Shown piece after piece: positions 4,606 to 63,081 of a stretch of DNA of 64,000 nt. A model generated the notes under the pieces. The model saw only the letters and a program-made list of their open reading frames with translations. It searched no databases and had not been told where the DNA came from. Positions within the stretch are counted from its first letter, which is position 1, and the number at the start of each line of letters is the position of its first letter. Source of the stretch: an uncultured Candidatus Saccharibacteria bacterium (lineage in GTDB: Bacteria > Patescibacteriota > Doudnabacteria > UBA920); the NCBI GenBank assembly GCA_964521955.1, contig CAZFTX010000001.1, forward strand, positions 42,386-106,385, in the 5' to 3' direction. The translations under genes and the position numbers were made by a program.

Positions 4606-4805
4606 AAGAAACCACTCCGACGTCCGCCAAAGGCGGAGTCCGGAGCCCCGATCCAAAGGCGTCGGGGCAGAGACGAAGATTACACAAATACTTCAAGATG
4701 TATTATACCAAATTTATAAAAATGATAAAAGAAAATTAGGTCGCCTTTACTTAACAACAAAGTTATGATTAAAAAACTTACCGCACCAAAGTCGAAAAAG
4801 ATGCG

Positions 4806-5852
4806 TTAGTTGAGAATATTAAAAAGCTTGATTCGCTTTCTTAGGTTTTGCGACCGACAGTGTTTTAAAACCCCGAGATAAGAACTTACTGTTTGTTTTA
4901 ATTTTTCAAGACTTATCTCTTCCCGTGTAAATTTAACAATTTTTCCATCGAGCTTTCTTAACATTCTATTTTTTGCTTTAGTTCGTAGGGACTGTCTATA
5001 AGGTAAAACTACATAGCCAAGAAAGTCTATTCCACGAGTTAGCTTATTCAAAAAAATCTTTTTAGGGTGCAGATTAAGTTTTAAATTTTCAGACAGGTAC
5101 GTTTCCATCTGGGGGATCAAGCCTTCCAGATATTTTTTATTATCGCTTACCATCACGAAATCATCTGTATAGCGTATGTAATATCTTACTTTCAGTTGAT
5201 GCTTAATAAATTTATCAAAGTTGTCGAGGTAAATGTTAGCGAATATTTGTGAAGTTAAGTTGCCAATCGGCAGTCCCTTGGCTAAATTTACTTGAAAACT
5301 ATCAATAATTTGATCAAGTAATTTCAATGCATTATGATCCGTGACCCGCCGTCGCAAGAGATCTTTGAGAATCGTATGGTCAACAGAAGCAAAAAATTTT
5401 CTAATGTCACATTTTAAGTAATAACATGGGCGGCGGTAATTCTGGCTAACTCCTTTTGTAAAGTTTTCCAAACGTTTAACCGCACGGTGAGTCCCTTTTC
5501 CGATACGGCAGGAGTAAGAATCGTAAATCAAGGTATGATCGAACAACGGGTATAAATTCCGAAAGACGGCATGATGAACAATTCTGTCACATACAGTTGC
5601 TTTGTGGATCTGGCGCAACTTAGGATCAAAGATAAGAAATGACTCATAAGGCTGGTGGGTATAAGTGTGGTTGACTAATTCATGGCGTAATTGAAAAAGG
5701 TTGTCCTCGAGGTTGCGTTCAAAATTCTGAACGTCAGGCTTACCCCGTTTACCAGCTTTAAATTCCTGCCATGACAATAATAAATTATCTAAACTAGTAA
5801 TTTGTTCAAATAATGTATGAGTTACATCCATAATGAAATTCCTATAATACAA
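4806..5852 (-). CDS. DGR-type reverse transcriptase
   Basis: 348 aa, compact for an RT. Motifs: FDPKLRQIHKATVCDRIVHHA (RT1/2), SYSCRIGKGTHRA, IRYTDDFVMVSD (YxDD catalytic) and GYVV thumb. It sits next to a cognate TR/VR. An alternative start is M8 (MDVTH, 5831). Confidence 0.9.
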   Translation of the reverse strand: MYYRNFIMDVTHTLFEQITSLDNLLLSWQEFKAGKRGKPDVQNFERNLEDNLFQLRHELVNHTYTHQPYESFLIFDPKLRQIHKATVCDRIVHHAVFRNLYPLFDHTLIYDSYSCRIGKGTHRAVKRLENFTKGVSQNYRRPCYYLKCDIRKFFASVDHTILKDLLRRRVTDHNALKLLDQIIDSFQVNLAKGLPIGNLTSQIFANIYLDNFDKFIKHQLKVRYYIRYTDDFVMVSDNKKYLEGLIPQMETYLSENLKLNLHPKKIFLNKLTRGIDFLGYVVLPYRQSLRTKAKNRMLRKLDGKIVKFTREEISLEKLKQTVSSYLGVLKHCRSQNLRKRIKLFNILN

Positions 5853-6167
5853 AAAACTTACGACCTATATAAAACAAATTACGAATATACAAAAACTTTC
5901 CCAAAAAGTGATAAATACGCCTTAGGCGAAAAATCTAAAGCAATTATTTTAGAGCTGCTAGAATTGCTAGTTGAGGCAGAAAATGCCAAGCGCGAATGGA
6001 AAGAACCAATTTTGGCAAAAGCCAGCAACAAATTAGCAGTTTTAAAACTTATGTTCCGGCTCGCCAATGAAACCAAAATCTTAGACAGCAAAAAATATTT
6101 GTCTTTAACCGACAAAAGTTTGGAAGTCGGCCGGATGCTCGGCGGCTGGCTAAAATCCGTTAAGTAG
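5817..6167 (+). CDS. avd: Avd-like accessory variability determinant (four-helix-bundle protein, TIGR02436-like)
   Basis: 116 aa and basic. Motifs FPKSDKYALGEKSKA and ...GRMLGGWLKS match the Avd / 23S-IVS four-helix-bundle family. It is encoded on the opposite strand to the RT and target, and its 5' end overlaps the RT start by 15-36 nt. Confidence 0.75.
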   Translation: MSYIHNEIPIIQKTYDLYKTNYEYTKTFPKSDKYALGEKSKAIILELLELLVEAENAKREWKEPILAKASNKLAVLKLMFRLANETKILDSKKYLSLTDKSLEVGRMLGGWLKSVK

Positions 6168-6216
6168 CCAAGGGCTCGGGTAAATCCCGAACCCTTGCGC
6201 CAAAAGAATAGACGTA

Positions 6217-6346
6217 ACGAGAAGCGACCCACGGCCGAACCGAAGTTGTGATTGGCATTATCGGTCCAGTTGTTGTCGAAGTTGAGCTTGTCATCGTTCC
6301 AGTACCAGTACAGCGAGTTGTTGAACTGGTCATCGGCATCCGGGTG
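6217..6346 (-). repeat. DGR template repeat (TR)
   Basis: About 130 bp, about 85% identical to 6746-6875. Of the 20 differences I could align, 19 sit where the TR has A on the minus strand (T on the plus strand as given). The TR reads as the Asn-rich template ...DADDQFNNSLYWYWNDDKLNFDNNWTDNANHNFGSAVGRFS. Confidence 0.85.
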
Positions 6347-6677
6347 ATTGTCTGGCTTCATCTAAAGCTGAAAAAGAAAAAATATCCTAATCCAGTCCCC
6401 AGGCCAAGCCGAGGAAAAATTTGTGGCGTCTTAAAACGCACTAAAGCCAGACAAGTAGTGTCTATCCTTTCTAAACTCACTTCTTAAAAGCAAAAGCTAT
6501 TTAAGAACTCTGGTTTAAAAAGTAAGGATTTCGGCGACCCTAATCCGTGGACAAGAGTGCATTAGCCTAATTTCCTTTTAAGTATACAGTAATTGTGGAT
6601 AACTAAAAAATTTTGCGAAGCAAGTATCAAGTATAGAAACATATGCAGAGGAAGTAATAAAATTTAAACAAAACAAA

Positions 6678-6730
6678 AGGACTTGGGAATCAAGAATCAA
6701 AAACAAATAGATTCATGATCCCAAGTCCTA
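6678..6730 (-). promoter_or_regulatory. stem-loop immediately 3' of the VR (DGR target-recognition hairpin)
   Basis: Inverted repeat aggacttggg(a)atc ... gat(c)cccaagtcct, a roughly 13-bp stem around a 25-nt AT-rich loop, about 15 nt beyond the target stop. It is absent from the TR copy. Confidence 0.6.
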
Positions 6731-6742
6731 AGTATCGAGCGA

Positions 6743-6875
6743 CTACGAGAAGCGACCCACGGCCGAACCGAAGCAGTGAAAGGCATCATCGGCCCAACCG
6801 CTGCCGAAGCCGAGCTCGTCATCGCTCCAGTACCAGAACAGCGAGTCGACGAACTGGTCATCGGCAACCGGGGCG
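6743..6875 (-). repeat. DGR variable repeat (VR) at the 3' end of the target gene, including the conserved IMH-like block
   Basis: The VR encodes ...VADDQFVDSLFWYWSDDELGFGSGWADDAFHCFGSAVGRFS*. Every TR AAC (Asn) position is a different residue in the VR. The last 27 nt (cttcggttcggccgtgggtcgcttctc on the coding strand) are identical in TR and VR and GC-rich, as expected for the conserved 3' IMH block. Homology stops there. Confidence 0.85.
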
Positions 6876-7866
6876 TAGCTGTTAGCCGGGCAGTCGATGC
6901 CTAGGTACTCGAACTTCGACATCCGGTCGGGCTGAGTAGCTATAGTGCTGCCGGTCATGATGCAGTCCTGGGGGAATTGGTTCTCCGCAAGAACGACCTT
7001 GACCCGGGACAGCCGTACCGAATGGCCGCTGTAGCTGTTGCCGGTGTTGGCACCGGCCGGAGCGAAGCAGAAGTCATCGTCCGTGGTCTCATGGAGTTTC
7101 TGCCACGTGATGATGCCTGCGGGTGTGAGCCGGACGTACTGGGCCGAAAGCTGCCCGTCGCGCCTGTTCTTGAAGCCGTGCTTGCCGAAAACCTTGCGGT
7201 AGGCCTTGCCGACTTCGGGAACGAAGTTGGCGACAACGGAGGCATAGGCTTCGCGTCCTTCGTCCGTGGTAGCGAGCGGATCGCCTTTGATGCCAAACAA
7301 CTTGGCCAGCGTGGAAAGCTTAAACCAGATCGGGATACCTTCGGTACCTTCTCCGGCCTTGGCTTCCTTGGCGAGCTTGAGGGCGGTGGCGACATTCAGC
7401 GTGGTCTTGGAGCCGAACATGTCGCGAGCGAGAGCCTGGTAGGCCGAGACATCTTCTTCCACCGGCAGGTATTTCCAGTCCGGCGGCGGCGTGAAGTGCT
7501 TTTCGGTCGAGATCTCGCCGTCGTAGAGTCCGGCAATGAACGGCCGGGCAATGGCGAAGGTTTCGGGTTGCAGGAAACAGCAAGCCTCGATCTGATCGAG
7601 CAGAACGTAAAACGGCACCTCGCTAGCCATCTGGTTGAACATGCCAGGCTCGCGGGTTTCCAAAGACAGGAACTGTCCGAGGGTTTCCGGCGTCAGCCAA
7701 GTCACTTGGAACGGCAAGCTGTCCTTGTAAGCCTGGAGAGCCTTGGCCAGTTCGGCATCAAACCGCGTGTTGTCACCTTTGTTTACGCGATCGGTTGCTT
7801 GACCGAGCGTGCGCAGGAGAGACTCCCGCTGTTCCAAAGCACCCTGATTTACAGTAGCGCTCATGA
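6743..7866 (-). CDS. DGR target (variable) protein with C-terminal VR, probably a C-type-lectin/FGE-like ligand-binding fold
   Basis: GC-rich ORF (about 57% GC against about 34% for the genome). Preferred start is the ATG at 7866, preceded by AAGGAGG. The ORF track extends to a TTG at 7996, which would add a hydrophobic leader MKLAFLLAILIAG. The C-terminal 45 aa are the VR. Confidence 0.8.
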
Positions 7867-8066
7867 TTGACCTCCTTAGTGGTCTGTTGTGTGCAAGTTG
7901 ATTTAGCCACGAGGACAAGTCCCCGAAGCTGGTTCTCACTTCCGATGAAATGAGCGTTCCGGCTATCAAAATCGCCAGCAAGAACGCTAATTTCAAAGGT
8001 TTAAAATTAGCGTATAATTATACCTGTTTTTTTAACTCCTGTCAAGGACTCCCTTTTCACAGAAAT

Positions 8067-9158: not shown

Positions 9159-9294
9159 AACTTCAATATTATCCCAAAAATATCATTAAACATCAATAAA
9201 TAAAAGTACAAAAGCCCGTCGTTCGTTCTCCGACACAAGATACAACCCTCTACCCTCAGTTCACCTCCATATGTTCAAAAACTTTTACATGCTG

Positions 9295-15774: not shown

Positions 15775-16134
15775 ACTTTAAGTTAAAATTAATTACTTAG
15801 ATATTCTACTATACTTATTTATATGAGTCTACATTATCATACATCAGCGCTATCTGCTCCTATCAGAGAATCCGCGGACGTTTTATTGACAAAATTTAAA
15901 GCTTAATATAACATAACTGCAATATGTTCATATTCACTATTTCCCCAATTAAGAATGCAATGAAGTCTTCCTTGAAGACCATGCTTTTGGGGTTAGTCAG
16001 AAAATGAAACTTTAACCAAAATAAATTTTCTAAAACCAACCCCTCAAGCATAGCTAAAGAAGAGGGGTTTTATAATACTTACATTTCCACTTGCCGAAAG
16101 CACTTTTAACAAAAAAGTTTTTTCGGGAGGTGGC

Positions 16135-16423
16135 AATGCCAGAGCCATTCAAAGCTAAGGTTACGGCTATGGATCGGGGCCTTTACTGGATACAACCAGT
16201 AGGAATGAACGAACAAGCCAGGGTGACAGTCATAGCAATCAAGCATGGACGCAACGAAACGCTCTTGATTTTCCACCCGGCAATACCCGCCGGGCAACCG
16301 AAGGGCGAAGTACAACATTTCAGCGCTGTGATCCCGCGAAACTCGGAACAGCACACAACTTGGTGCTTACCGGGAAAACTCTCTGAAGAGGAGTACAAAA
16401 AACTTACTCCGAAAGAGGAGTAA
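16135..16423 (+). CDS. hypothetical small protein (GC-rich island 2)
   Basis: GGAGG 5 nt upstream of the ATG. Local GC about 50%. No family match recognised. Confidence 0.45.
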
Positions 16424-16537
16424 TAACAAGGAGGAAAGAACAAAGAAATCACAACACACGAAAAGCGGCCCTAGAAAGGCTTGTCACTCAATATCCGCAC
16501 CGGGAAATGAGCATGACAAGCGAGGCCGCTTTTTCAA

Positions 16538-16566
16538 TTGACACAAATCTAAATTTTTCCTATCAT
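16538..16566 (+). promoter_or_regulatory. sigma70-like promoter (TTGACA-N17-TATCAT)
   Basis: Consensus -35 with 17-nt spacing and a near-consensus -10, inside the GC-rich island upstream of 16767..17090. Confidence 0.45.
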
Positions 16567-16654
16567 TCCCACATGAGACAACTTTCATCCATTGTCATTA
16601 TTATAAGCATTACTTCCTTCCAGGCAATGGGCTGAGTTCTTTAAAGTATTGTAA

Positions 16655-16693
16655 CCGTCCCGCCCTTGCTACAAAGGGCGAGACGGTTTTTTG
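16655..16693 (+). terminator. rho-independent terminator-like hairpin
   Basis: ccgtcccgccctt / aagggcgagacgg, a 13-bp stem with one mismatch, followed by TTTTTTG. Confidence 0.5.
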
Positions 16694-16766
16694 TTCCCTG
16701 CTAAGGGCTACGTTGTAGCCTTTGGCTGGTTACAAAACCAAAAAGACAACTTGAGAGGAGAGGACA

Positions 16767-17090
16767 ATGAACACACTTAGTTTTTCGGGAGATGGCCTCA
16801 TAACGCTTCAAGAACAGCGAGCGTTACTAAGCCGCCAAACCTTCCGGATCGTAGCCGGTCAAAATGAACAAGCGTTCTCCGTGGTTTCAGTCAGCCAGCA
16901 TTCTGTTGGCATTTTCTTAGTGGAATTAGTACACCAAGACAACATTCCCTGGTATGGAATCTTGATGATTCAGGATAATCCCGGACAAACAATCATGGTC
17001 CTACAATCCGAAGCGCCACAAGACCGCAACGATTGGAACCGTCTCATTCACCAGGCCAGGCTGATTTCCCAAGGCAACCCCAACCACTAA
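16767..17090 (+). CDS. hypothetical small protein (GC-rich island 2)
   Basis: GAGAGGAGAGG SD-like purine run before the ATG. 107 aa with no recognised domain. Confidence 0.45.
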   Translation: MNTLSFSGDGLITLQEQRALLSRQTFRIVAGQNEQAFSVVSVSQHSVGIFLVELVHQDNIPWYGILMIQDNPGQTIMVLQSEAPQDRNDWNRLIHQARLISQGNPNH

Positions 17091-17100
17091 GCAAAACGAA

Positions 17101-17140
17101 AATCGGCGCCCTCCACATGGAGGCGCGCCGATTTTGATTT
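17101..17140. terminator. bidirectional rho-independent terminator
   Basis: cggcgccctcc-acat-ggaggcgcgccg GC-rich hairpin flanked by gattttgatttt. Lies between the convergent 16767..17090 (+) ORF and the giant gene (-). Confidence 0.6.
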
Positions 17141-20100
17141 TAATCATCTAAAGATATATTTTGATTCACTACGCCTTGATTGTCTACTTTTATTATCTGA
17201 TTTTTCAACAAAATAACTTTATCTTCAACTGTCTGCATTACCCTAAGTATATATTCCCCTTTTGGCGCTTTTAAGAAAAATCTTCCTTTTTCATTTGTCA
17301 TTGCCTTACCCAATACAACAGAGGGGATTGATTTAGGACTAATCTCAATTATTAAGAAGTGTGTAGGATGATTTTGGCTAGTTAAGGAGCCCCAAAGTTT
17401 ACGATGTGGAATAAACCTTTTTAGAACAAATAATAACCCAAAAACACTCACAAAAATTAAGCCAAATAAATTTGGTTTCAACAACAGAGTCAGAAGGGAA
17501 AAACTTGCACTTCCCCAAAATATTATTTCAAGAATCACATGAAAGAAAGTTTCTAAACGTGGATGGAAATTTACATATTTTAACTTACCAGTCTGGTTCC
17601 AATCAAATGCTAAAGGGTCCATGGGAATATTCGGTGACAATACTTCCCCACTTTTTGTAATTTGCATTAATTCACCATGATATAAATTATCAAAAACCCC
17701 GTCCATTTTACCCAAAATCCTAACAGAAGGAAATTGATAATTGGTTTTTTTTGCTTTTATCAAAAAATTTCCTGGCTTATCCATAAAACCAAAACGTCCG
17801 CTTAAATCGGTTATGGCTTGCTCCGTAACTTTACCTGTTTCAAAATTTATCATTTCTACAATTACTGGATCCAAAGGCTGCTTAGTAACAGAGTCATACA
17901 CTGTACCCCAATAGCGACGTCTTCGTCTTAAACCAAAACTACTCATTAAACCTTGTAATGTCGCAACAATATGGAGCCAAAATTCGGTTAAATTGGTAAA
18001 GTTACCAAGCAACCCATATTTTGCCAAACTATATTCCATTACCAAAGAAGAAGGCGCTACAACCAAAGCAGAAACTGAAACTGCTAATTTTGTTTCAAAT
18101 TCTTGTAAAAATAAAGTACTTCCTTGTTTTAGAATTTTTTCTAAAGGTTGTATTGAAGTCTTGGAAACTGTAACTATTGTATCCTTAATAAAGTTGCCGG
18201 CGCTACTCAAACCTGAAACTAAGCCTTCTGAAACCGAAGCTACACTACTGGAAATGTTTTCAAATAAATTTGCTAAAGGTAGGTTGTTTGAAAGAGGCCC
18301 AGGACTAGCATCTGGCACTGGGGGAGTGTTTTGAGGAACCACCACTACAGGAGTTTCAATAGGTGGGTTTTCAATAACAACCACGGGAGGAGAAACTTGT
18401 GGCTCAACAACATTTACCAGTGCATCTTCAGCAGGTTCAACCAACACGCTAGCAAAACTTTCTACACTATTTACACCTCTCGTAACTTTAACTCTTATAG
18501 TATAAGCACCCGCTTTTGCAAAATTACAAACATTTCTATGAGTAACAAATTCGTTAGTTGTTCTTCGGGTTAACTCGTAAATGCCGTCATTTGTACAGTC
18601 ATACTCATAAGTAATTTGCCCTTTTGCTGTCCCAGAAACCGCAACTCTTAAACTTACGTTATTTAAAGGCTCCTCCCCAACCAATTTATCTGACCAAATC
18701 TTGCGATCCTTAGAAACAGTTAGTATAGCTGCTAAGGGCAAATTTTCAACCAAAGGAGGGTTAGGAGTTGGAGTTTTATCTTTAACCAAAAGCTGAATAC
18801 CGGAACTCACAGTTTGTTTTGCTTGCATTTGACTATTAAAATATTTTACATAAACTGTATAAAAACCAGCTCGACATGTTTTTTGTTCACACAAATTCCA
18901 CTGAGTGGACGTTGTGAATAATTGCAAAACCGCATTTTTAAAATCTGGCGTGTTTGAAATTGCCATATATGCAGTATCTGCGGTCGCTTGAAGAGTTAAA
19001 GTAGTTAGACTATCTACAGTTGTGCTCGCTCCAGCGTTTATAACTACACCAAATCCTCCCTCTAAAGGAGTTGGTACACCACCACCACCTCCGCCTCCTC
19101 CACCGCCTCCAGACCCTTCATCGTCTAAAGTGGAACAAGCAGCTGTTGACTGAGTTGTTGTTGAAGTGTAAGCAGTTTCTATATCACTACTGTTTCTAGC
19201 TTTAACTACAAAATCATATGAAGTACCACAAGTCAAGCCAGAAAAAATCTGAGATGTTGAAGAGCTCCAATCAGGACTAGTTGATGCAGTTGCATTTAAA
19301 ACATAGTATTCTGTCCCTGCCGGATTACTATTTGCATTCCACGAAGCAGTCAACTGTGTTTGAGAGTCTTGATTTAGACTTAAAGAAGTTGGTAAGTTTG
19401 CCAAAGTATAAATTGAAATTGTGACAGTAGAAGCATAATTACCGGCAACATCAAACACGTCGGCATAGAAGGTATAGGGAGTATTGGGAGTTAAGCCAGA
19501 AGAAAGCCAAGACAAAGCAGAAGTCGCGGAAGAATTTGTACCTGTAGTGGAGTTATTAAAAACGTAAGAAGCTGTTGCCAAACCAGACAAAGAATCCGAA
19601 GCTCCTGAAATTGTGGCCGTCAAAGAAGTTGGTGAGGTAGTTGCTAAAGTCAAACTACCTGCAGTAGGAACGACAGTGTCTAACTTAAAAGCAACCGCAC
19701 CAGAATTAGCTGTAGCATATGAAGAATTGGCTCCCAAATTATCTATAGTTTTCACTCGCCAATAATAACCATCTGAAGAATCGCTTAAAACCTGTCCAGT
19801 TGTACCCGTTGTGTAAGTTCCCGTACTGGTTGCTTGCCCAACTGTAAAACTAGCGCTACCTTGAGTCGCTGTTGCCGAAGTATAATCCAATAACAAAGTA
19901 GAAAAAGAGGAACTTGTAGAAATTTCAATCTTATATCGCACCGTATTGCCAACATCAGGGTCAGTAAGATTGAAAGTAAAAGTAGGAGTATTATCGTTTA
20001 TCCAACTTCCACCCACAACCGTTGATGGCCCAAGCGAAGTTGGGCTATTGGGTGCGTTATCAGAAATTAAGCTTAACTCTGGTAAATTTGCATACGAATC

Positions 20101-23100
20101 CAATACTGTCCCATCACTGTAAACCATCCTAAAATAATACGTTGCACCAAGTACGACATTACTTGGATCCAATACCCAATCATACTCTATATACTGTCCG
20201 GCATTTACCGCAAAAGGGTTTAAAGCTGTTGGATTCCCTTCCTGATAGGAACCTAAAATATCGGACGAAGGAAGTAAAACTGTAGAAATAGTTGTCGAAG
20301 AAGTTACTGAAGCATTATTATAAAAGTTCCATTGTGTACTGGTTGCACTTTGTTCCGTCTCAAAAGTACTGAAAATTCCTGCACCATTTTTATATTCTGC
20401 CTGTATCCAGCTTGGAGAGCGCACACTTGAAGAAAATCTTAATTCGTCAATTACTCCTGAAAAAAAGCCCATACCAGAAGCGCTGTTTGATCCAAAATAA
20501 TATCGGTCACCACCCGTCCAAAGCGTTGCTATAGAAGCAGCGGTTCCTTCTTCAACTCCGTTTAAATATACCCTCATATTTCCGCTGTTTTGTGCGACAG
20601 CTGTAACATAATACCAATTTGAAGGAGTTAATACGGTAGTTCCAAATACCGTTTTTGTTCCACCGTCAAAGGTATAAGATTCTATTGTGCCGGTAGCATT
20701 CATTCTCAACTGGTGTGACCAAGCAGCACCTGGTCCCGCGCTAGTAGTCCTCACAAAAATATTTATAGCAGTCGCATCAACCGGTTTAATCCATGCTGAA
20801 ATTGTATATGCAGTCGGATCCGTAGCATCGTTAATAATCACCCTATCATTGGAACCATCAAAATATTGTGCGCCATCCGAAATTTCAGTAGATGTGGCAT
20901 TTGGCTCAGTTGTTGAAAGCTTGGTTCCAATAATATTATTTGAAGTTGAGTCGTCTATAGTAGTGGTTGCAGTAGTGTCGTTTAAATGATGGACAAATCT
21001 AAAACCGCTATCCCATACCCCAGTCGTTGTAGAATTATCTGTCGCTCCCGGATTGTTATAATACATCCAAATATAATCGGTACTTGAAGCGCTACTAATT
21101 TGCGGAACTTTTACCCATACTGTTGAAGTTGAAGTTTCGTCCCATTTTTCAATTTCATAATTCAATAGAGTTGACCCGTCTGAGTCAACAAAACGAATAT
21201 CTTGTCCACTGTTTTGGGTTTTACTGTAATCAATATTACTACTTTCATTTAAATTAACCAGTACAGGAAAATCTGTTAAATTTTCGGTTGCAGAAGAATT
21301 ATTAAATACAATTTTCCTTCTATTTAACCAACTGTGGTCATACCATTCATCCGGATTTATACTAACATCGTTCCAATTTGAATTCGTGTATGACGAAACC
21401 TGAAGTTTAAAATTTGAAGTTGTAGTTGATAAATTATAATCGCTAACTAATAAATTCATTCTAAGCCTAATAGGACTTGATGTAGAAATTATTACCACAG
21501 ACGAATTCAAAGCACCTATATCTACTGTTGGCTGTAATTGGTTAATATTTTCATAAAATCTATAATCTCCTTGAGAAATAACCGCTTCAAAAATCCAGCC
21601 CTCATTATTACCCGAATCTGTTGAGTAAGTGCTTTGAGCATTAATATCTGAAGCATTGATATTGTAGGAATCTTTAACATCCAAATAAGAAATGCTTTCT
21701 GTGGCCTGCGAGTCTATCCTGGCTTGGGTGCCTGAGGCAGTACTTCGGATTGATAATACTCCCCCGCTTGCGCCGGTTAAAGTTAAGGTATTGGCAATCG
21801 TCTGAGTAGAAGTTGCGCTAAAGTACAGTGTAGCGGCCGTGGTGCTAGATTTGGTTAAATTATAATAAGTGGAAGTTCCAAAAATATATTGGTCAACGCC
21901 ATTTAAGTTAACAGTACCGTTATTATGGGTAAAGGTACTGGCGTCATTAAAAAAGTTTCCGGCAATATTCAAAGTAGAGGAAGTAGCTGTATAAGTCCCG
22001 CCACCAGATAAAGTCAAATGTTTATAATTGTAGTCTTTTATACTGACACTACTAGAAGTTGAATAAATGGCAGTTGAACCGCTTTGAAATTCTGGATAGG
22101 AACTATTAGTAGTAATAGTCTCCCCTCCCTGAAGTTTAAAAGTACCTCCGTCTTGAACTATTAATGTCCCGGAAGAACCGTTAACTGTAAGATTATATCC
22201 GTTAATATTAAAAGCACCCTCTACTATATTCAAGTCCTGCGAAGCTGCATCTAAAGTCAAAGCTGAGACTAACTGGACTTCGCCCCCTGATTTGTTAACA
22301 GTAATATCCCCATTGAAAATCCCTGTCGCACCAGTAAGATCAAATGTTTGTGTCGCTGAACCACCAAATGTTAGGGCTGTAGTACCGCCGTCAAAACCAG
22401 ACAAAATCCGAACACTCCCCCTTGCTTCCACGGTACCTGTATTCAAACTTCCGTCGGATAAAATTAAATCACCAGTAGCAACTAAAGTGTCATCAGAAGT
22501 AATTGTCCTAGAATAATTTCCCACTGAATTGTTAAACTGGAGTCTTTCAAAAGTCTGACTAGAATTAATATTAATAATACGACCACCTCCATCAGCGGGT
22601 CCAAAAACTGTAGATGAAGCGGAAACAAAAGTTCCCCCAGAAATTGTAAAGTAATCAGTAAAAGTTGTGGTGCTATTGCTACCCACAAAAGAACCGCCAG
22701 ATAAAGTAAAAGAACCAGAAAGTGTAAAAGTATAATTTCCTTGAGTATAAGTCCCGGCCGCCTGCTCCCAACTACCAGAGCCACCACTTCCAATAGTAAC
22801 AGCATAATTTCCAGCATTAGAAATTGGTATAGTACCCAAAAAATCAGGGGTAGTAGTAACACCAAAAAGAGAACTTGCCGTATTAAATAATATAGTATCC
22901 GTTGCGTCCGCTGCACTATTTAATCTTACTATCAAACCCGAACCTCCACTCAAAGACAAAGTTTGATTGACACTATCATTACCAAAATCCAAAACTGTTG
23001 TACCCCCGTCAAATGTAGAAGATTGATAAATATTACCCCTAACATCGACAGTGCCTGTATTCAAACTTCCGTCGGATAAAATTAAATCACCAGTTACAAT

Positions 23101-25749
23101 TAAAGTATCCCCTGATGTAATTGTTCTAGAATAATTTCCCACTGAATTGTTAAACTGGAGTCTTTCAAAAGTCTGACTAGAATTAATATTAATAATACGA
23201 CCACCTCCATCAGCGGGTCCAAAAACTGTAGATGAAGCGGAAACAAAAGTTCCCCCAGAAATTGTAAAGTAATCAGTAAAAGTTGTGGTGCTTGACCCTC
23301 CAACAAAAGTTCCGGAAGCCATTGTAAAATTTCCAATAACAGTAAAAGTATACCCATTTCCCTGAGTAAGCGTACCTGTATAACCTGCGGACATTGTAAG
23401 GCCGGCTATTGTGGTTGTGGTTGCTATTGTCGGACTACAATTAGTTACACAAGTATTGTCAAAAGTTGCTGTATCAGATGAACCAGGCACAATGTCACTA
23501 GACCAATTAGCCGCTGTTGTCCACTGAGCATCTCCACCTCCTCCGTCCCAAACGTATGCCGCATTAAAAGCTTCTGCACTCGCATCGCCGAATTGAAAAT
23601 TGAGTTTATGATTTGCGGTCCGCAAATCTAAATGAGAAACAGTTGCCACTTCACTACAATTCCAGTTTGGATAAAAAATTATATCCCCTTCTAAGATTTG
23701 TGCTCCACTAGTCCTATCTTCTTCACCACAAGTTAAAGTTGCAAACTGCATGTCATTTACAGTAGCCTGGTCCGCTGGAGTAATAATTAAATTTTCAGTA
23801 CCAACAGTTGTAAAATCTACATTCCAATATTCTCCCGCCACCGGTTGGGAGTGAATATTTAAAACTTGTATTTCTACTGTTGGGTCAACCACTACAGGAT
23901 AAACTGCTGTTTTTAGCCAGTTTTTATCTGGAGTCAAAGTAAGTAAATTTTTATTTACAGCAAACTTTAAACTCTTACTAATCTCACCTTCACTGTCAAT
24001 CATGTAAGGAGCAGACAAAACATATAAGAGTTTTAAAGACTTTCCTTTATACCCTTTTTCATAAAGTTGAATTTTTGAATCAGACTCCTGTATATAATCA
24101 AATTCATCTAAATTCAATAAATACCTAAAACGACTCGGGTGGTTTTTATTTTTTAAAACAATTGCTTCTTTCAAGCCCGACTCAGTTATCTCATATTCCA
24201 CATCTGTGTTTAAAAATGCTTCTTTATATGCAACTTTGTTATCAAGCCTCTCAGCAGTTGTAGAAGGCCTAGTGCCTGCCATTACCATCTGTAGTTTAGG
24301 AGATTGGTTCAAAGTGTTATTCCCAGAAAAAACAATTGGATTATCCAAATTTCCTGGCAAACTTAAATCCAAAGCCTCATTGGAAAATGACATCTTCAGA
24401 AACCCTTCGGGATCAAGCAACTTCGGAGACATCTCCAAGAGCTCGGTGTCAGTCAATTCACCCTTTTCTTGTTCATATCTAGTTTCCAACCAAACAGAAT
24501 CTAGAAAGAGTAAATCTTGGTTTTCACCTTTAAATTCAAAAGGTAACTGGTAAGAAAGTCTAATTTTCAACTCCGATACAAATTCAAAGAGTGCTTTTGA
24601 TAATGGTATATTAATAAACCCATTGTTCTGCAAATTCGAAACTCCTTTAGTTAAATCTATCTCAACCAATGACTGCCAAGTCGTGCTGGTAGTTTGATAT
24701 TCAACCAAAAGAACCGCTCCCGGCGTTTTTTTAGAAGCTAACGATAAATTTAAAGCAAAGCTTGAAAGAGTTTCGAAATCAAGTAAAGATAAATCTTGTG
24801 AGGAAAAATTAAAATATTCCAGTTTTGGAGAAGAAATTTTAGAATAAGTCTGTATTGGATCAGACTGCTTTTCAGGAATTATTTCTGAATCTTTATCTAA
24901 GATTATTTCCGGATTATTTAATTCACTAATTAAATTTTCAGATTGTGGTGTTGAAGTAGTAATTATTTCTTGAGTAGTGGTAGAAAGAAGTAAGTCATCA
25001 TAAACCAAATTGGTCTCGGTTGATGTTGGAGTTTTTCCAAAACTTTCATTTTCTGAATCACTTAATTCATCAGCGTTTTCTGAAACTAATGCTTTAAATT
25101 TTTGATTGGTTGAAAATAAATCTTTATCATAAAAATTTGTCGTTGTAGAATTTCTCTGTTCCTCAATTTGGGATACAGGTTCTTCTTTTTTATTTTCAAC
25201 ATCTAAATCTGTTTGTACCAAAATAATTTCTTGTGTCCATGCTGTTATTTCTGTTGAGCTACTTTTTACTTCCCCATCTGTTATCTTTTTTTGTTCTTCT
25301 GAAGTTTTATTTAGAGTTGGATCCTTTAATTCAGTTTTTAAATTTTCAGTTTCTAAAACACTGTCCATACTTGAAGTAGACAAAGGAATTTCTAAAGGTT
25401 CAGAAATTTGATTTTCTATTCCATTTTTAAAATTAAGAACCGTAGAATTAAAATCAGTAAACTCACTTAAAGACTGTTCTGGTCCTAAGTCGTTTTTAAA
25501 TGCCTGATTTGGATTTATCCATGAAAGTGTGGAAAGTGTATCTGTTGCAGTTATTGTTACTGAGCCTTTGGGAAAATATTGTTGAATAACAATATTACTT
25601 TCTAAAATTTCCGCATCTTTCAAAGCTTCGTTTGAAATTACCGAGGCAGCAAAAATTTGAGTCGGTATTGAAAATACAAGTAAAAAAATTACAAAATTTT
25701 TACATGTTGTAATGAATGTTTTTTTAATTTTATTTAGAATTATTTTCAC
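17140..25749 (-). CDS. giant secreted/surface protein (2869 aa) with LamG/concanavalin-like domain, beta-rich repeats and a C-terminal membrane-anchor module
   Basis: N-terminal signal peptide. Two near-identical internal repeats of about 100 aa. A LamG-like segment (…WYYVTAVAQNSGNMRVYLNGVEEG…IDELRFSS). A poly-Gly linker. The C-terminal ~350 aa contain CarboxypepD_reg-like domains plus TM helices, homologous to ORF 30924..31868. Confidence 0.85.
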   Translation of the reverse strand: MKIILNKIKKTFITTCKNFVIFLLVFSIPTQIFAASVISNEALKDAEILESNIVIQQYFPKGSVTITATDTLSTLSWINPNQAFKNDLGPEQSLSEFTDFNSTVLNFKNGIENQISEPLEIPLSTSSMDSVLETENLKTELKDPTLNKTSEEQKKITDGEVKSSSTEITAWTQEIILVQTDLDVENKKEEPVSQIEEQRNSTTTNFYDKDLFSTNQKFKALVSENADELSDSENESFGKTPTSTETNLVYDDLLLSTTTQEIITTSTPQSENLISELNNPEIILDKDSEIIPEKQSDPIQTYSKISSPKLEYFNFSSQDLSLLDFETLSSFALNLSLASKKTPGAVLLVEYQTTSTTWQSLVEIDLTKGVSNLQNNGFINIPLSKALFEFVSELKIRLSYQLPFEFKGENQDLLFLDSVWLETRYEQEKGELTDTELLEMSPKLLDPEGFLKMSFSNEALDLSLPGNLDNPIVFSGNNTLNQSPKLQMVMAGTRPSTTAERLDNKVAYKEAFLNTDVEYEITESGLKEAIVLKNKNHPSRFRYLLNLDEFDYIQESDSKIQLYEKGYKGKSLKLLYVLSAPYMIDSEGEISKSLKFAVNKNLLTLTPDKNWLKTAVYPVVVDPTVEIQVLNIHSQPVAGEYWNVDFTTVGTENLIITPADQATVNDMQFATLTCGEEDRTSGAQILEGDIIFYPNWNCSEVATVSHLDLRTANHKLNFQFGDASAEAFNAAYVWDGGGGDAQWTTAANWSSDIVPGSSDTATFDNTCVTNCSPTIATTTTIAGLTMSAGYTGTLTQGNGYTFTVIGNFTMASGTFVGGSSTTTFTDYFTISGGTFVSASSTVFGPADGGGRIININSSQTFERLQFNNSVGNYSRTITSGDTLIVTGDLILSDGSLNTGTVDVRGNIYQSSTFDGGTTVLDFGNDSVNQTLSLSGGSGLIVRLNSAADATDTILFNTASSLFGVTTTPDFLGTIPISNAGNYAVTIGSGGSGSWEQAAGTYTQGNYTFTLSGSFTLSGGSFVGSNSTTTFTDYFTISGGTFVSASSTVFGPADGGGRIININSSQTFERLQFNNSVGNYSRTITSDDTLVATGDLILSDGSLNTGTVEARGSVRILSGFDGGTTALTFGGSATQTFDLTGATGIFNGDITVNKSGGEVQLVSALTLDAASQDLNIVEGAFNINGYNLTVNGSSGTLIVQDGGTFKLQGGETITTNSSYPEFQSGSTAIYSTSSSVSIKDYNYKHLTLSGGGTYTATSSTLNIAGNFFNDASTFTHNNGTVNLNGVDQYIFGTSTYYNLTKSSTTAATLYFSATSTQTIANTLTLTGASGGVLSIRSTASGTQARIDSQATESISYLDVKDSYNINASDINAQSTYSTDSGNNEGWIFEAVISQGDYRFYENINQLQPTVDIGALNSSVVIISTSSPIRLRMNLLVSDYNLSTTTSNFKLQVSSYTNSNWNDVSINPDEWYDHSWLNRRKIVFNNSSATENLTDFPVLVNLNESSNIDYSKTQNSGQDIRFVDSDGSTLLNYEIEKWDETSTSTVWVKVPQISSASSTDYIWMYYNNPGATDNSTTTGVWDSGFRFVHHLNDTTATTTIDDSTSNNIIGTKLSTTEPNATSTEISDGAQYFDGSNDRVIINDATDPTAYTISAWIKPVDATAINIFVRTTSAGPGAAWSHQLRMNATGTIESYTFDGGTKTVFGTTVLTPSNWYYVTAVAQNSGNMRVYLNGVEEGTAASIATLWTGGDRYYFGSNSASGMGFFSGVIDELRFSSSVRSPSWIQAEYKNGAGIFSTFETEQSATSTQWNFYNNASVTSSTTISTVLLPSSDILGSYQEGNPTALNPFAVNAGQYIEYDWVLDPSNVVLGATYYFRMVYSDGTVLDSYANLPELSLISDNAPNSPTSLGPSTVVGGSWINDNTPTFTFNLTDPDVGNTVRYKIEISTSSSFSTLLLDYTSATATQGSASFTVGQATSTGTYTTGTTGQVLSDSSDGYYWRVKTIDNLGANSSYATANSGAVAFKLDTVVPTAGSLTLATTSPTSLTATISGASDSLSGLATASYVFNNSTTGTNSSATSALSWLSSGLTPNTPYTFYADVFDVAGNYASTVTISIYTLANLPTSLSLNQDSQTQLTASWNANSNPAGTEYYVLNATASTSPDWSSSTSQIFSGLTCGTSYDFVVKARNSSDIETAYTSTTTQSTAACSTLDDEGSGGGGGGGGGGGVPTPLEGGFGVVINAGASTTVDSLTTLTLQATADTAYMAISNTPDFKNAVLQLFTTSTQWNLCEQKTCRAGFYTVYVKYFNSQMQAKQTVSSGIQLLVKDKTPTPNPPLVENLPLAAILTVSKDRKIWSDKLVGEEPLNNVSLRVAVSGTAKGQITYEYDCTNDGIYELTRRTTNEFVTHRNVCNFAKAGAYTIRVKVTRGVNSVESFASVLVEPAEDALVNVVEPQVSPPVVVIENPPIETPVVVVPQNTPPVPDASPGPLSNNLPLANLFENISSSVASVSEGLVSGLSSAGNFIKDTIVTVSKTSIQPLEKILKQGSTLFLQEFETKLAVSVSALVVAPSSLVMEYSLAKYGLLGNFTNLTEFWLHIVATLQGLMSSFGLRRRRRYWGTVYDSVTKQPLDPVIVEMINFETGKVTEQAITDLSGRFGFMDKPGNFLIKAKKTNYQFPSVRILGKMDGVFDNLYHGELMQITKSGEVLSPNIPMDPLAFDWNQTGKLKYVNFHPRLETFFHVILEIIFWGSASFSLLTLLLKPNLFGLIFVSVFGLLFVLKRFIPHRKLWGSLTSQNHPTHFLIIEISPKSIPSVVLGKAMTNEKGRFFLKAPKGEYILRVMQTVEDKVILLKNQIIKVDNQGVVNQNISLDD
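22425..23300. repeat. intragenic direct repeat: two ~265-bp copies (22425-22690 and 23035-23300), essentially identical, period ~610 bp
   Basis: Read directly: identical stretches including ...tcccactgaattgttaaactggagtctttcaaaagtctgactagaattaatattaataatacgaccacctccatcagcgggtccaaaaactgtagatgaagcggaaacaaaagttcccccagaaattgtaaag... occur twice. They also produce identical spurious antisense ORFs. Confidence 0.8.
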
Positions 25750-44706: not shown

Positions 44707-44782
44707 TCTTCTCTGTTCACTAAGCTTAAACCTTGACTTAGGTTTTTTAGTTACATACAATTCCTGTGCCAAGGAGGCAGTT

Positions 44783-45022
44783 ATGAACACACCTGCGACA
44801 GCAGGCTCACGCATCACGAAGAGTTTCGAGACATCCCCTGATGATCAAGTGAAAATCGCAAGGAGCTTGTTTCCAGCTTGTCACAGCGACCTAATCACAA
44901 GCAACTTCTTTGAACCTGGCAAGAAACCACCCGTCACCTGCCCTGACACGGACAGTGACTCGCCTACATACCAGTTTCCCACACCACTAAACGGCATTCC
45001 GTTCATGACGGAAAACGACTAA
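44783..45022 (+). CDS. hypothetical small protein (GC-rich island 3)
   Basis: AAGGAGG 6 nt before the ATG; about 55% GC; no recognised domain. Confidence 0.4.
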   Translation: MNTPATAGSRITKSFETSPDDQVKIARSLFPACHSDLITSNFFEPGKKPPVTCPDTDSDSPTYQFPTPLNGIPFMTEND

Positions 45023-45043
45023 CAATCAACCTAGGAGGCAAGC

Positions 45044-45265
45044 ATGCCATACCAAACAAGAAACGGCACAGTGATTAAAACAGTGACCTATGATAAAACC
45101 ACTGGGAACATGAAAGTCGAAATTGCCCCTGATCGCGACCCAAGGATCGACGAAGCACTGGCAGAATTCCAGCGCCTAACGGCAGGCATGTTGGACGCAG
45201 CAACCCGCGACAGTGTTGACCGAGCTTTCGTGCAACTTGCAGAGAAACTCCTTCTGGAAAACTGA
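45044..45265 (+). CDS. hypothetical small protein (GC-rich island 3)
   Basis: TAGGAGG SD before the ATG; 73 aa. Confidence 0.4.
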   Translation: MPYQTRNGTVIKTVTYDKTTGNMKVEIAPDRDPRIDEALAEFQRLTAGMLDAATRDSVDRAFVQLAEKLLLEN

Positions 45266-45272
45266 CGACACC

Positions 45273-45413
45273 ATGACTGACAACTATCAACCCTTGCCTG
45301 AAGAGGAACCCTCTGAAACCAATGTCATACCAGCACAGTCGCAAGAACCCCAGTCAGCCGATCCCCATCCAGCCGCCGACCACACTTCTGTGCCCGAGGA
45401 TTACCATTGGTAG
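45273..45413 (+). CDS. hypothetical small acidic protein (GC-rich island 3)
   Basis: In-frame ATG (MTDNYQPLPEEE...) 7 nt after the previous stop. Weak support. Confidence 0.25.
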   Translation: MTDNYQPLPEEEPSETNVIPAQSQEPQSADPHPAADHTSVPEDYHW

Positions 45414-45429
45414 ACTCTCGACACTCGCA

Positions 45430-45473
45430 AAACGCCGCCTCCGACACTCTCGGAAGCGGCGTTCCCTTTTTTC
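45430..45473 (+). terminator. rho-independent terminator
   Basis: aacgccgcctccg-N7-cggaagcggcgtt stem followed by cccttttttc. Confidence 0.6.
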
Positions 45474-49058: not shown

Positions 49059-49087
49059 TTTCAAAAGTAGCGGTATATTGACTTTAA

Positions 49088-56804: not shown

Positions 56805-56833
56805 TTTACAAAACCTCTCATATATTGTATAAA
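56805..56833 (+). promoter_or_regulatory. sigma70-like promoter (TTTACA-N17-TATAAA) for the island-4 ORF
   Basis: Read directly; positioned 30 nt upstream of AAGGAGG-ATG. Confidence 0.4.
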
Positions 56834-56863
56834 TATCATTAACCGATCCAAGGAGGATCACTT

Positions 56864-57181
56864 ATGCCCCATCAACCCGCTATCGCCACTCAGGTTTCCT
56901 GGTTAGCGATAAGAAGGATTCGGGAACAAACCGATTCCACCAACAAAAGTCATCCTGGGCAGTCTCACGCCAGCGCACGTAAAGCAGAATTGCGCTCTGC
57001 TCGCAGAAAAGAACATGGTGCGAGCATTGCGAAAATCGGACTGCAACAGGTCATGGAAGAAGAGGACAAGCGGTTTCAAAACGCCAAAAAATTCATGACC
57101 GGAGGCACCAAACCGACCACTATCACCGCCGCCAATCCTGTCATGAAAGCTCCGTCGTATTCAGGTCGTTACTACTACTGA
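56864..57181 (+). CDS. hypothetical small basic protein (GC-rich island 4)
   Basis: CAAGGAGG SD; 105 aa; no recognised domain. Confidence 0.4.
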   Translation: MPHQPAIATQVSWLAIRRIREQTDSTNKSHPGQSHASARKAELRSARRKEHGASIAKIGLQQVMEEEDKRFQNAKKFMTGGTKPTTITAANPVMKAPSYSGRYYY

Positions 57182-57200
57182 TCGACGACCACTCCGCCAC

Positions 57201-57246
57201 TCACCTCCCCGCACGTAGCCTAGTTGCGGGGAGGTGTTCTTTTTTT
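57201..57246 (+). terminator. rho-independent terminator
   Basis: cacctccccgca-N11-tgcggggaggtg, a perfect 12-bp stem, then ttcttttttt. Confidence 0.7.
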
Positions 57247-58056: not shown

Positions 58057-58104
58057 CAAAAAGAAATACCGCGGGGTTCTTGAGCCCCGCGGTGACGACT
58101 TAAG

Positions 58105-58353
58105 TCAGGAATCACTTTTTTGAAGAGCCAGACTTGCAAGCAAAGCCTCAAGCTTATCGGCTCTTTCTTCAAGCGTGTCAACTCGATCCGCAAGAGAAGG
58201 CCCGTAACATTTAAGCGCATCCCTAACCGCACGTCGACAGAATCCAGATACGTCATCGCCGAGGCTTCTTGCGACTGACTCAATCAAATCGTAATCGGAC
58301 TCTGGAAGGCGAAAATTGACTTGCCTGCGTTTTTGAGGCGTTCCTCTTCTCAT
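58105..58353 (-). CDS. ribbon-helix-helix (CopG/Arc/MetJ-like) DNA-binding protein (GC-rich island 5)
   Basis: A beta-strand VNFRLPES followed by two helices (DYDLIESVARSLG / DVSGFCRRAVRDAL). GGAGG SD before the ATG. Confidence 0.5.
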   Translation of the reverse strand: MRRGTPQKRRQVNFRLPESDYDLIESVARSLGDDVSGFCRRAVRDALKCYGPSLADRVDTLEERADKLEALLASLALQKSDS

Positions 58354-58417
58354 GATGTTCCTCCGTCCTGTTGAAATACGCCTATTATAATGCTACATTT
58401 CAACCCAAAAGTCAATA

Positions 58418-62098: not shown

Positions 62099-62233
62099 CG
62101 ACCTCTCCAAATACTTACATATTTTACTTAAAAAAAGCCTATTGGTCAATAAAAATACGGACGGGGGTCAGAGGCCTTAGCCTTCAGCCCGCCGTCCGCG
62201 AATTTCGGTCTTGCGAGAGAACTGTGGTTGCGG

Positions 62234-62827
62234 TTAGAGCGCCGAGACCTTCGAAAGCACTTTCGCCCAGCCGTCGGGGTGCAATCCCAGTTCCACACCT
62301 TCCAAGGTATGATAACTGAAATATTCCCGAGACAAATCAAAAGTGCCTTTAACTGCGCAGACCGCAAGGTCAATCATCGGGCCATGACCGAAGGCAACGC
62401 CCAACTCACCTTCTTCAAGCTGCGCAAACATCTGGGAGACTCCACCTCGGACAATTTCTGCCCACTCATCCACCACCTTTGCCACTCCATGACATGCGAG
62501 CATGGCATGAATGTTCCCTCCCGAAGCTGCAAGCGCCCGAAACGTGCTAGGCGACGTAATTTCAGAAAGCAACTCCTTAGTGCCAATTTGGGAAACAACA
62601 GGCGCAACCCTACCCACATGCCCGTGCCCCACAATGAACGAAGCCGCGGTCTGAGCCGTGCAGACATGCGGTCCGTGAAAAACGCAATCAATCCCAAACC
62701 GATCACTCATTGCACGATACGCAAGCCCAACATCACGGGCTAAATCTAATCCAGCAAGACTGAGGAATTTGAGCGATTCGCTCGCTTCTTCATCGGCATC
62801 GGCATGAGTGAGATAAATCAATCTCTT
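62234..62827 (-). CDS. hypothetical protein, weakly SixA/histidine-phosphatase-like (GC-rich island 6)
   Basis: The N-terminus MKRLIYLTHADADEEASESLKFLSLAGLD parallels SixA (IMRHGDAALDAASDSVRPLTTNG), but RHG is replaced by THA. AAGGAGAAGGAA SD. About 58% GC. Confidence 0.3.
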   Translation of the reverse strand, partial: KRLIYLTHADADEEASESLKFLSLAGLDLARDVGLAYRAMSDRFGIDCVFHGPHVCTAQTAASFIVGHGHVGRVAPVVSQIGTKELLSEITSPSTFRALAASGGNIHAMLACHGVAKVVDEWAEIVRGGVSQMFAQLEEGELGVAFGHGPMIDLAVCAVKGTFDLSREYFSYHTLEGVELGLHPDGWAKVLSKVSAL

Positions 62828-63081
62828 CATTTCCTTCTCCTTCTTCATTTCAGATTTCGGACACAACAGGCAAGGGTCAAAAAACCACTACCCGTTGTGT
62901 CCAACTTAAAAAGAAGAAAACTAACCGCAAATTGTTAAAGTTCATTCGCAAATCACATTTCAGGCTTAAATCCGTCTACCTTTGGTAGACAAACTTAGGC
63001 ACCAAACCGTGATCTAGCATTATAGCACTTTTTTTGCTCCTTGTCAATGGTGATCTTTTCATACTTGCTATGCTAAGATTT

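Follow-up and report, generated by a model that had tools for sequence, protein, structure and literature searches.

Minimal mobile elements, as defined in Neisseria (Saunders & Snyder 2002; Snyder et al. 2007; both as quoted in PMC3082526), are sites at which different whole-gene cassettes, or a cassette and its absence, alternate between the same two conserved genes, with no integrase, transposase or terminal repeats, with cargo of atypical composition, and with an exchange most readily attributed to homologous recombination in conserved flanks, in a lineage that has competence genes. Here, we describe cassettes of a similar kind in an uncultured bacterium of the Candidate Phyla Radiation (CPR), based on a 64-kb stretch of contig CAZFTX010000001.1 (the window, whose own positions are used throughout). 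Six GC-rich segments, which an earlier note on this DNA had marked and which we call islands 1 to 6, stand out in the window; our focus is island 2, the segment 15886-17140 between dcd and a giant surface-protein gene. We consider it somewhat better than an even bet, at roughly 0.55, that this segment is a lineage-specific accessory module and that the islands are clade-restricted cassettes which, like minimal mobile elements, are exchanged by recombination.

Three further systems bear comparison. Phage morons, described by Hendrix and colleagues, are autonomous units with their own promoter and terminator, which carry a few small genes of deviant composition and are inserted between genes. 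The islands share the autonomy, the small genes, the deviant composition and the intergenic position but lie among housekeeping genes (dcd, miaA/gatB, clpB/comF) rather than in a prophage, and their proteins gave no informative PHROG match (the ribbon-helix-helix [RHH] protein of island 5 weakly hits a PHROG of unknown function) and no match in IMG/VR or among viral structures. In leader-peptide attenuators of the trp/ilv type, the structural gene is preceded by a promoter, a very short open reading frame (ORF) and an intrinsic terminator, an arrangement that the focal module shows twice in tandem; the module differs in having leaderless small ORFs, no visible antiterminator alternative, and downstream genes that are orphans rather than biosynthetic enzymes. 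Integron gene cassettes, finally, are likewise small, often orphan ORFs that serve as exchangeable units, yet the islands have no integrase, attC-type sites or array, possess promoters of their own and are scattered singly. The cassettes thus seem to be of a known kind, akin to minimal mobile elements or morons, here in a CPR lineage.

The dcd protein of the window is 77-85% identical to that of metagenome-assembled genomes (MAGs) labelled Candidatus Doudnabacteria, Saccharibacteria or Patescibacteria, and the 2869-aa surface protein and a diversity-generating retroelement (DGR) are traits typical of the CPR; the genome is taken here to be that of a Doudnabacteria-like member of the Patescibacteria. 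Loci of relatives (designated L001 and so forth) were gathered via dcd and an M48 peptidase. In every assembly, the focal module has dcd on one side and the giant surface-protein gene on the other. When seven versions are aligned, the conserved stretch opens exactly at the -35 box of the first promoter, at 15886, and closes at the terminator, at 17141; in L043 and L045, the sequence left of 15886 is unrelated to the window, while everything right of it is conserved. The start at 16091 that had been proposed for the focal segment is therefore to be moved to 15886.

Within this conserved frame, the module and its flanks diverge at different rates. Compared with L041, the flanks are ~95% and the intergenic parts 96% identical, as against 86.5% for the ORF I2a and 79.9% for the ORF I2b, and the synonymous divergence (dS) of I2a, 0.42, exceeds that of the flanks (0.13-0.28). 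Compared with L043, the flanking genes (DHFR, Mem_trans, dcd, giant gene) have only 80-86% nucleotide identity, with a dS of about 1.0 for Mem_trans and dcd, while the noncoding parts of the module remain at 88-97% and I2a at 91%, with a dS of 0.27. I2a is thus nearer to L043 than to L041, and the flanks rank in the opposite order, a discordance that points to the module having moved horizontally between members of the clade. I2b drops to 41% nucleotide and 23% amino acid identity in L043 (E = 1e-6), and its divergence spans the interval from the ATG to the terminator stem. Judged from these alignments, the pattern points to exchange of the focal module among related lineages, with I2b as a deeply diverged allele.

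The module is built as two tandem units of one design: promoter, leaderless small ORF, terminator, SD-led ORF (i.e., preceded by a Shine-Dalgarno [SD] sequence), terminator (Table 1). The first small ORF, sORF1, is open and in frame in 7/7 sequences, with conservative amino acid changes. The leader upstream of I2a is predicted to fold more stably than expected (z = -4.95), and in the terminator preceding I2b the relatives carry a G at position 16681 that restores a C-G pair of the stem. From this layout, we would expect the SD-led genes to be expressed conditionally, through read-through of the attenuator formed by leader ORF and terminator; I2a would additionally need the opening of the hairpin predicted to occlude its SD. 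Alternatively, sORF1 and sORF2 could encode independent small proteins or type I toxin-like peptides. As a side note, an antisense promoter-like site (TTGCCT-N16-TATAAT, 10/12; 16600-16627, minus strand) points into sORF2 and the second promoter, P2; it could be a chance match or give rise to an antisense RNA in the manner of a type I toxin-antitoxin system.

Table 1. Features of the focal module and of the other islands, in window coordinates (strand: +, - or.)
Feature	Position	Strand	Details
Promoter P1, TTGACA-N17-TAACAT	15886..15914	+	10/12 in scan; true left edge of the conserved module
sORF1, 27 aa, MFIFTISPIKNAMKSSLKTMLLGLVRK	15924..16007	+	leaderless or nearly so; start ~10 nt after the -10 box
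Intrinsic terminator-like hairpin after sORF1	16038..16071	+	attenuator position; kept in all relatives
Predicted hairpin pairing with the I2a SD GGGAGGUGG	16087..16133	+	minimum-free-energy and centroid structures concur; thermodynamic prediction only
I2a, SD-led ORF	16136..16423	+	95 aa; GC 50%; GC at third codon positions (GC3) 0.53
Long imperfect hairpin/bidirectional terminator between the units	16460..16535	.	terminator scan matches on both strands; 96-97% conserved in L041 and L043
Promoter P2, TTGACA-N17-TATCAT	16538..16566	+	11/12; among five window sites at >=11/12
sORF2, 20 aa, MRQLSSIVIIISITSFQAMG	16573..16635	+	leaderless, ATG 7 nt after the -10 box; conserved in 6 sequences
Intrinsic terminator after sORF2, upstream of I2b	16653..16693	+	attenuator position; leader fold z = -5.6
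I2b, SD-led ORF	16767..17090	+	107 aa; GC 48%; GC3 0.53; hypervariable allele of the module
Bidirectional terminator	17099..17141	.	common to the I2b unit and the convergent giant gene; 98-100% conserved in L041 and L043
Giant surface-protein gene	17140-25749	-	2869 aa; convergent with the focal module
DGR reverse transcriptase (RT)	4806..5831	-	Pfam RVT_1, 2e-20; host-like composition, GC3 0.35
DGR accessory protein bAvd	5817..6167	+	Pfam bAvd, 4e-22; host-like composition
DGR template repeat (TR)	6217..6344	-	128 nt; 84% identity to the variable region
Island 1, DGR target gene	6743..7864	-	373 aa; GC 59%; GC3 0.75; SD AAGGAGGT
Variable region (VR)	6745-6872		3' end of the DGR target gene
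Promoter of the DGR target gene	8045-8017		perfect consensus
Island 3	44733..45472	+	promoter, I3a (44783-45022), I3b (45044-45265), I3c (45273-45413), terminator; between miaA and gatB
Island 4	56805..57246	+	promoter, basic 105-aa ORF (56864-57181), terminator; between clpB and comF
Island 5	58094..58415	-	solo RHH ORF (58105-58353), own promoter; between comF and a DNA-alkylation-repair gene
Island 6	62151..63047	-	perfect consensus promoter (63047-63019), leader ~180 nt, 198-aa ORF (62234-62830), terminator; next to tRNA-Ser

Both SD-led ORFs of the module are real protein-coding genes under moderate purifying selection: compared with L041, the ratio of nonsynonymous to synonymous divergence (dN/dS) is 0.21 for I2a and 0.33 for I2b (dcd, 0.008; Mem_trans, 0.045), and both display third-position bias. 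This matters for the possibility that the islands are artefacts, either chimeras of assembly or binning or GC-rich noncoding RNA genes mistaken for ORFs. RNA genes often account for GC-rich islands in AT-rich genomes, and the MAG origin of the sequence makes chimeras conceivable. Yet codon-position bias and a dN/dS below 1 argue against misread RNA genes, and so does Rfam, which at gathering thresholds returned nothing but a tRNA-Ser in the window, a permissive scan of the focal region adding only chance microRNA-type matches. As for chimeras, all six island junctions recur in independent Logan or JGI assemblies. The focal island is present with identical neighbours in Logan per-run assemblies SRR31968663, SRR31968662, SRR16481186, SRR16481187 and SRR8893623, and in diverged versions in SRR32414321, SRR14271343, ERR3169464 and SRR5722986, giving a total of at least nine runs; islands 1, 3, 4 and 5 are reproduced in SRR16481186/7 and island 6 in a JGI metagenome. 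Chimerism, which the earlier note had named as an outcome that would sink its proposal, is hence rejected, and we regard an artefact of either type as extremely improbable.

The islands differ from the rest of the window, whose mean GC is 37.7%, in composition and in translation signals. The main peaks of a 200-bp GC scan coincide with the six marked segments, so their elevation is real. The range of 50-58% GC given for them is too high, however, for two of the six (52.7, 47.0, 52.0, 52.1, 47.9 and 51.9% for islands 1 to 6), i.e., the focal and the RHH segment. GC3 gives the stronger signal: 47 host genes average 0.316 +/- 0.045 with a maximum of 0.403, as against 0.50-0.75 (z = 4.1 to 9.7) for the island ORFs, the RHH gene excepted (0.373). 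Similarly, C occupies 29-35% of four-fold degenerate sites in the islands vs 14-16% in host genes. High-expression codon bias was considered as the cause and rejected, as rplA, rplK and nusG in the window have host-like codon usage.

Scanning 4-10 nt before start codons, we found a canonical SD (GGAGG/AGGAG-type), 4-8 nt 5' of the ATG, in 8/9 island ORFs vs 1/49 host genes (Fisher p = 4e-8), in line with what had been claimed; the regions upstream of host genes are A/T-rich, often with a -10-like box adjoining the start codon. The single host exception is rplA, encoding ribosomal protein L1 (26148-26831), whose upstream region has an SD-like AAGGA; rplA of relatives L007, L015 and L016 is likewise preceded by an SD, suggesting that the anti-SD is functional in this lineage. 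A search for the 16S anti-SD itself in all the loci compared returned none. Promoters also set the islands apart, again as had been proposed: five sites match TTGACA-N17-TATAAT at >=11/12 on both strands of the 64 kb, and three of them drive islands 2, 1 and 6 (at 16538, +; 8045, -; and 63047, -, respectively), with islands 3 and 4 having 10/12 promoters. A GC-rich hairpin with a T-run does close every island, but terminators of this type are not island-specific because host genes carry the same kind. All told, the islands are real, atypical in composition and translation signals, each an autonomous expression unit, and variable and exchanged among relatives. They are not one family, as had been assumed, since their proteins are mutually unrelated (no significant match in all-against-all BLASTP); one of the islands is a DGR target, and an NEQA motif common to I2a and I2b was dismissed as not significant (E = 0.4).

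The composition could suggest that the islands are recent foreign insertions, acquired through competence from a source of higher GC content (the host of an episymbiont, a plasmid or a phage, for example), with SD and GC content as signatures of the donor; this had been the proposal of the earlier note. Favouring it are the GC3 z-scores of 4-10, a four-fold site usage unlike that of host genes including ribosomal protein genes, the restriction of SDs to island genes, the patchy distribution among strains, and the RHH protein with its weak similarity to the plasmid-encoded NikA and MbpA; moreover, horizontal gene transfer into Patescibacteria is documented (PMC12455944). Searches for a donor, though, came back empty. 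Among 5.8 billion proteins, homologues of I2a fall into 4 clusters and those of I2b into 2, all from the focal locus, and a profile search of 1.84 billion representatives retrieved nothing beyond the query protein and a spurious satellite-repeat product; the latter (P0011, 1659 aa), in which the I2b profile scored 23 matches, is no homologue but the translation of a tandem repeat. I6, the protein of island 6, is equally without homologues outside the CPR clade in these two collections (the remaining island proteins were checked against family libraries and IMG/VR only). The DNA matched none of 50,697 phage records or 72,556 plasmid records, IMG/VR had no relatives of I1, I2a, I2b, I5 or I6, and no viral structure matched. 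Nor is there any trace of an integron or transposon, both of which we rejected: integrase and transposase domains, an attC-like repeat family or array, flanking direct or inverted repeats and target-site duplications were all absent.

Three further observations speak against a foreign donor. First, related species and genera, down to ~80% core protein identity, carry homologues of islands 2, 3b, 4 and 6 at the corresponding sites. Second, in relatives of ~50% GC the cargo still lies above the GC content of its host. Third, substitutions in I2a inferred from singletons are balanced, with 13 GC-to-AT vs 16 AT-to-GC changes as compared with the ~2:1 predicted for decay to host composition (p = 0.008); the counts are low and possibly confounded by recombination, yet as far as this spectrum can tell, the composition of I2a is not decaying toward the AT content of the host. 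A recent foreign origin therefore appears unlikely to us. What stands of the proposed horizontal insertion is exchange and patchiness, visible as discordance with the flanks, presence/absence and cassette swaps, while the donor was not found. The accompanying label of non-native gene content is too strong: the earlier note would have given it up if the small proteins proved to be conserved core genes of the lineage with similar GC elsewhere, and the comparison with sister genomes that it had called for comes near to this, showing syntenic homologues. Of the islands, those tested (2, 3b, 4 and 6) evolve fast, are confined to the clade and persist in synteny.

The relatives further reveal that the islands belong to a wider class. 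Gene order around miaA/gatB, clpB/comF and comF/alkylation-repair is conserved in dozens of loci, and the corresponding hot spots (upstream of dcd, miaA-gatB, clpB-comF and downstream of comF) repeatedly harbour other small ORFs with a canonical SD, whose GC content is mostly 5-12 and up to ~20 points over that of their own genome, including genomes of ~50% GC. Testing GC-rich ORFs (ATG-ORFs of 40-250 aa, >=8 GC points above their own locus) in ~60 loci, we counted 49 with an SD at the correct spacing vs 11 at a control offset (p = 8e-7), an enrichment not seen for AT-rich ORFs. Conserved host genes are without SD even in relatives of 39-49% GC, so that higher-GC relatives do not suggest themselves as SD-using donors, an idea that we set aside. 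Not every variable insert in the lineage is GC-rich and SD-led: between prfB and tmk, at 1880-2400 of L001 (about 9160-9290 of the window), there is an extra 141-aa orphan ORF of ~43% GC, without an SD, that is absent from the window.

Such position-specific, clade-wide association of SDs with GC-rich small ORFs raises the question of whether the islands could be a native, vertically inherited expression class, that is, fast-evolving proteins kept SD-dependent and GC-rich by selection, with mobility being incidental. The SD is kept in alleles of I6 with 63% and 26% identity and of I2b with 23% identity, there is no decay of GC content, syntenic sites retain their cassettes, the only SD-bearing host gene here and in relatives, rplA, is known for translational autoregulation, and leader structures are predicted to occlude the SD. 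This explanation is nonetheless at odds with the dS discordance between module and flanks and the whole-cassette swaps, which represent real exchange; in addition, about half of the Parcubacteria are reported to lack the anti-SD (PMC9297842), and selection able to hold a GC3 of 0.5-0.75 in tiny genes would be unusual. We consider strictly native inheritance doubtful. Candidate reasons for the existence of a GC3-rich, SD-led class include selection for SD-dependent translation (an option that hinges on the 16S anti-SD), biased gene conversion at hot spots of recombination, and an unsampled CPR mobilome. As a tentative and less likely possibility, the islands may form a translationally separate, clade-wide class of SD-dependent, GC3-rich, hypervariable orphan genes under selection, several of them gated by attenuators or hairpins, which would act as a conflict or host-interaction set shuffled via its regulatory flanks rather than as decaying foreign DNA.

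Pfam, PHROGs, NCBIfam and PADLOC hold no family for I2a or I2b, PADLOC detected no defence system, and neither protein has a detectable relative outside the Doudnabacteria-like clade. AlphaFold models are of moderate confidence; I2a is modelled as a small beta protein (predicted local distance difference test score, 79) with no informative structural match, and the I2b model weakly suggests a profilin/Eag-chaperone/immunity-like alpha/beta fold. At a guess, and with low confidence, I2b might function in inter-microbial or phage conflict, for instance as an immunity or adaptor protein.

Returning to the reading of the islands as exchangeable cassettes, the parallels with minimal mobile elements are extensive. 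The pairs of flanking genes (dcd/giant gene, miaA/gatB, clpB/comF, comF/alkylation-repair) are conserved; what lies between them varies (RHH vs zinc-ribbon ORF, I2b alleles of 23% identity, presence or absence of island 4 and of the DGR), and there are no integrases, transposases or terminal repeats. The focal module would then be one example of a clade-wide set of small, fast-evolving, SD-led orphan genes residing in hot spots between housekeeping genes. We infer that homologous recombination in conserved flanks and regulatory sequences passes such cassettes from one related lineage to another, probably following natural DNA uptake. The other five islands would be unrelated cargo of the same style, namely, a DGR target, a three-ORF unit, a basic 105-aa protein, an RHH protein and a His-phosphatase-like protein. 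There are differences from minimal mobile elements as well: the lineage is uncultured, each cassette is a complete promoter-SD-ORF-terminator unit, the recombination borders of I2b and of island 5 coincide with regulatory elements, and the cargo is uniformly GC-richer and SD-led in an SD-poor genome.

Several points weigh against this interpretation. The conservation of the noncoding parts of the module could stem from strong constraint at the RNA level instead of recent exchange, and the apparent replacement of the I2b allele could be extreme divergence in place. Transformation and recombination are inferred steps, for which comF is the one such gene visible in the window. The interpretation also offers no mechanism for cargo that lies 5-20 GC points above every examined host genome, nor for SDs on the cargo alone. 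Finally, the attenuator idea comes without a demonstrated antiterminator, and the relatives are too similar for covariation.

Of the remaining islands, islands 3 to 6 each have a counterpart, a replacement or a gap in relatives. A homologue of I3b, 42% identical, occupies the same site in L056. Island 4 is missing in L042, where the flanks are ~94% identical and the clpB-comF gap measures 75 bp vs 663 bp in the window; L056 has a distant I4 homologue at the same site (independent hidden Markov model [HMM] match, E = 4e-8), and an ORF of L049, which was part of the HMM build and weak in pairwise BLASTP, features the I4 core motif THPGQxxAxARK. The site of island 5 is taken in L042 by an unrelated SD-led zinc-ribbon ORF with the same -35 border and the same terminator. 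The description of the island 5 product as an RHH DNA-binding protein is backed by weak matches to Pfam RHH_1 and NikA-like (E = 1e-3, short of the Pfam cut-off). A match to RelB is weak too (E = 8e-3), and the ORF stands alone between its promoter and terminator, with no adjacent co-transcribed toxin gene of the type II toxin-antitoxin kind.

Homologues of the island 6 protein occur in L042 (63% identity) and L066 (26%, E = 4e-16). The one support for its previous description as SixA-like is a His_Phos_1 match (8.7e-5) in one of five family members, a distant homologue, the window copy having no Pfam match; at the position of the RHG motif, the window copy reads L-T-H-A and L066 R-H-A. By sequence, the protein may be a divergent or degenerate histidine-phosphatase-like one. 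The island 6 leader (62831-63012, minus strand) contains a hydrophobic small ORF of 22 codons (MNFNNLRLVFFFLSWTQRVVVF) that overlaps a strong hairpin and recalls the leader-ORF design of the focal module. Next to this island, the tRNA-Ser(GCT) gene (62017-62108) is 99% identical to that of L042 (10786-10888) but inverted relative to the conserved flanks, and the immediate flanks differ.

Island 1 is an exception in that it is recognizable. DGRs of CPR bacteria were reported by Paul et al. in 2017, and they have since been reviewed (PMC10221324). Island 1, and it alone, resembles them: it combines an RT, bAvd and a TR/VR pair, with the VR at the 3' end of the target gene and 19 of the 20 TR/VR mismatches, read from the alignment, at TR adenines. 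The segment 6170-7996, formerly taken for a set of small ORFs, thus comprises the 373-aa DGR target gene and the TR. What differs from the CPR systems is the composition, with a GC-rich, SD-led target next to a host-like RT and bAvd. In L001, which is 96.6% identical, the whole cassette (about 4720-8060, ~3.3 kb) is absent and the ABC-transporter gene abuts prfB; no target-site duplication was seen at the cassette borders. As both compositions are gained or lost here as one unit, GC content is not the stamp of a single donor, which further argues against the islands being recent foreign insertions. Remote targets were looked for and rejected, the TR having a single VR partner within the window, and none of the other five islands contains a TR-like repeat. 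The target ORF is open upstream of its SD-led ATG (7864) to a TTG at 7996 (6743-7996 in full); starting there would add a hydrophobic, signal-anchor-like N-terminus (MKLAFLLAILIAGTLISS...), and either start is possible.

CPR/Patescibacteria genomes are tiny and mostly unannotatable, and their accessory genes probably encode dealings with hosts, phages and each other. Should the cassette reading be true, this accessory fraction could be picked out by a simple rule, i.e., a small ORF with a canonical SD and a GC3 well above that of the genome, and its movement could be modelled as the swapping of cassettes through conserved promoter and terminator flanks, without mobility genes. It would also raise the question of why SD-led initiation, largely abandoned by the lineage, persists for one class of genes. 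For annotation, the segments are genuine and should not be dropped as contamination or chimeras, one of them being an ordinary DGR target.

Other elements were noted elsewhere in the window. An intergenic repeat family of ~180 nt with conserved hairpins (e.g., GAGCCGTAGT..ACCTACGGTGAGAA) is found at 30258-30401, 48897-49071 and 51591-51763, with a partial copy at 32754-32791; the first of these (30258-30470) closely follows a minus-strand promoter, a perfect TTGACA-N17-TATAAT (30494 to 30466), in the downstream direction. The family has no Rfam match and could represent small RNAs or a MITE-like element (miniature inverted-repeat transposable element). Arrays of T(C/T)AATTTTG-like units with a 10-bp period (40287-40336, 48498-48537 and 57285-57334) are each positioned directly upstream of a gene start (e.g., comF at 57322) and look like phased binding sites of a regulator. 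Lastly, inverted repeats of 44 nt with 89% complementarity (34870-34913 and 36624-36667) surround a 1.7-kb AT-rich segment with two minus-strand ORFs (35018-35554 and 35625-36425), which may be invertible or mobile.

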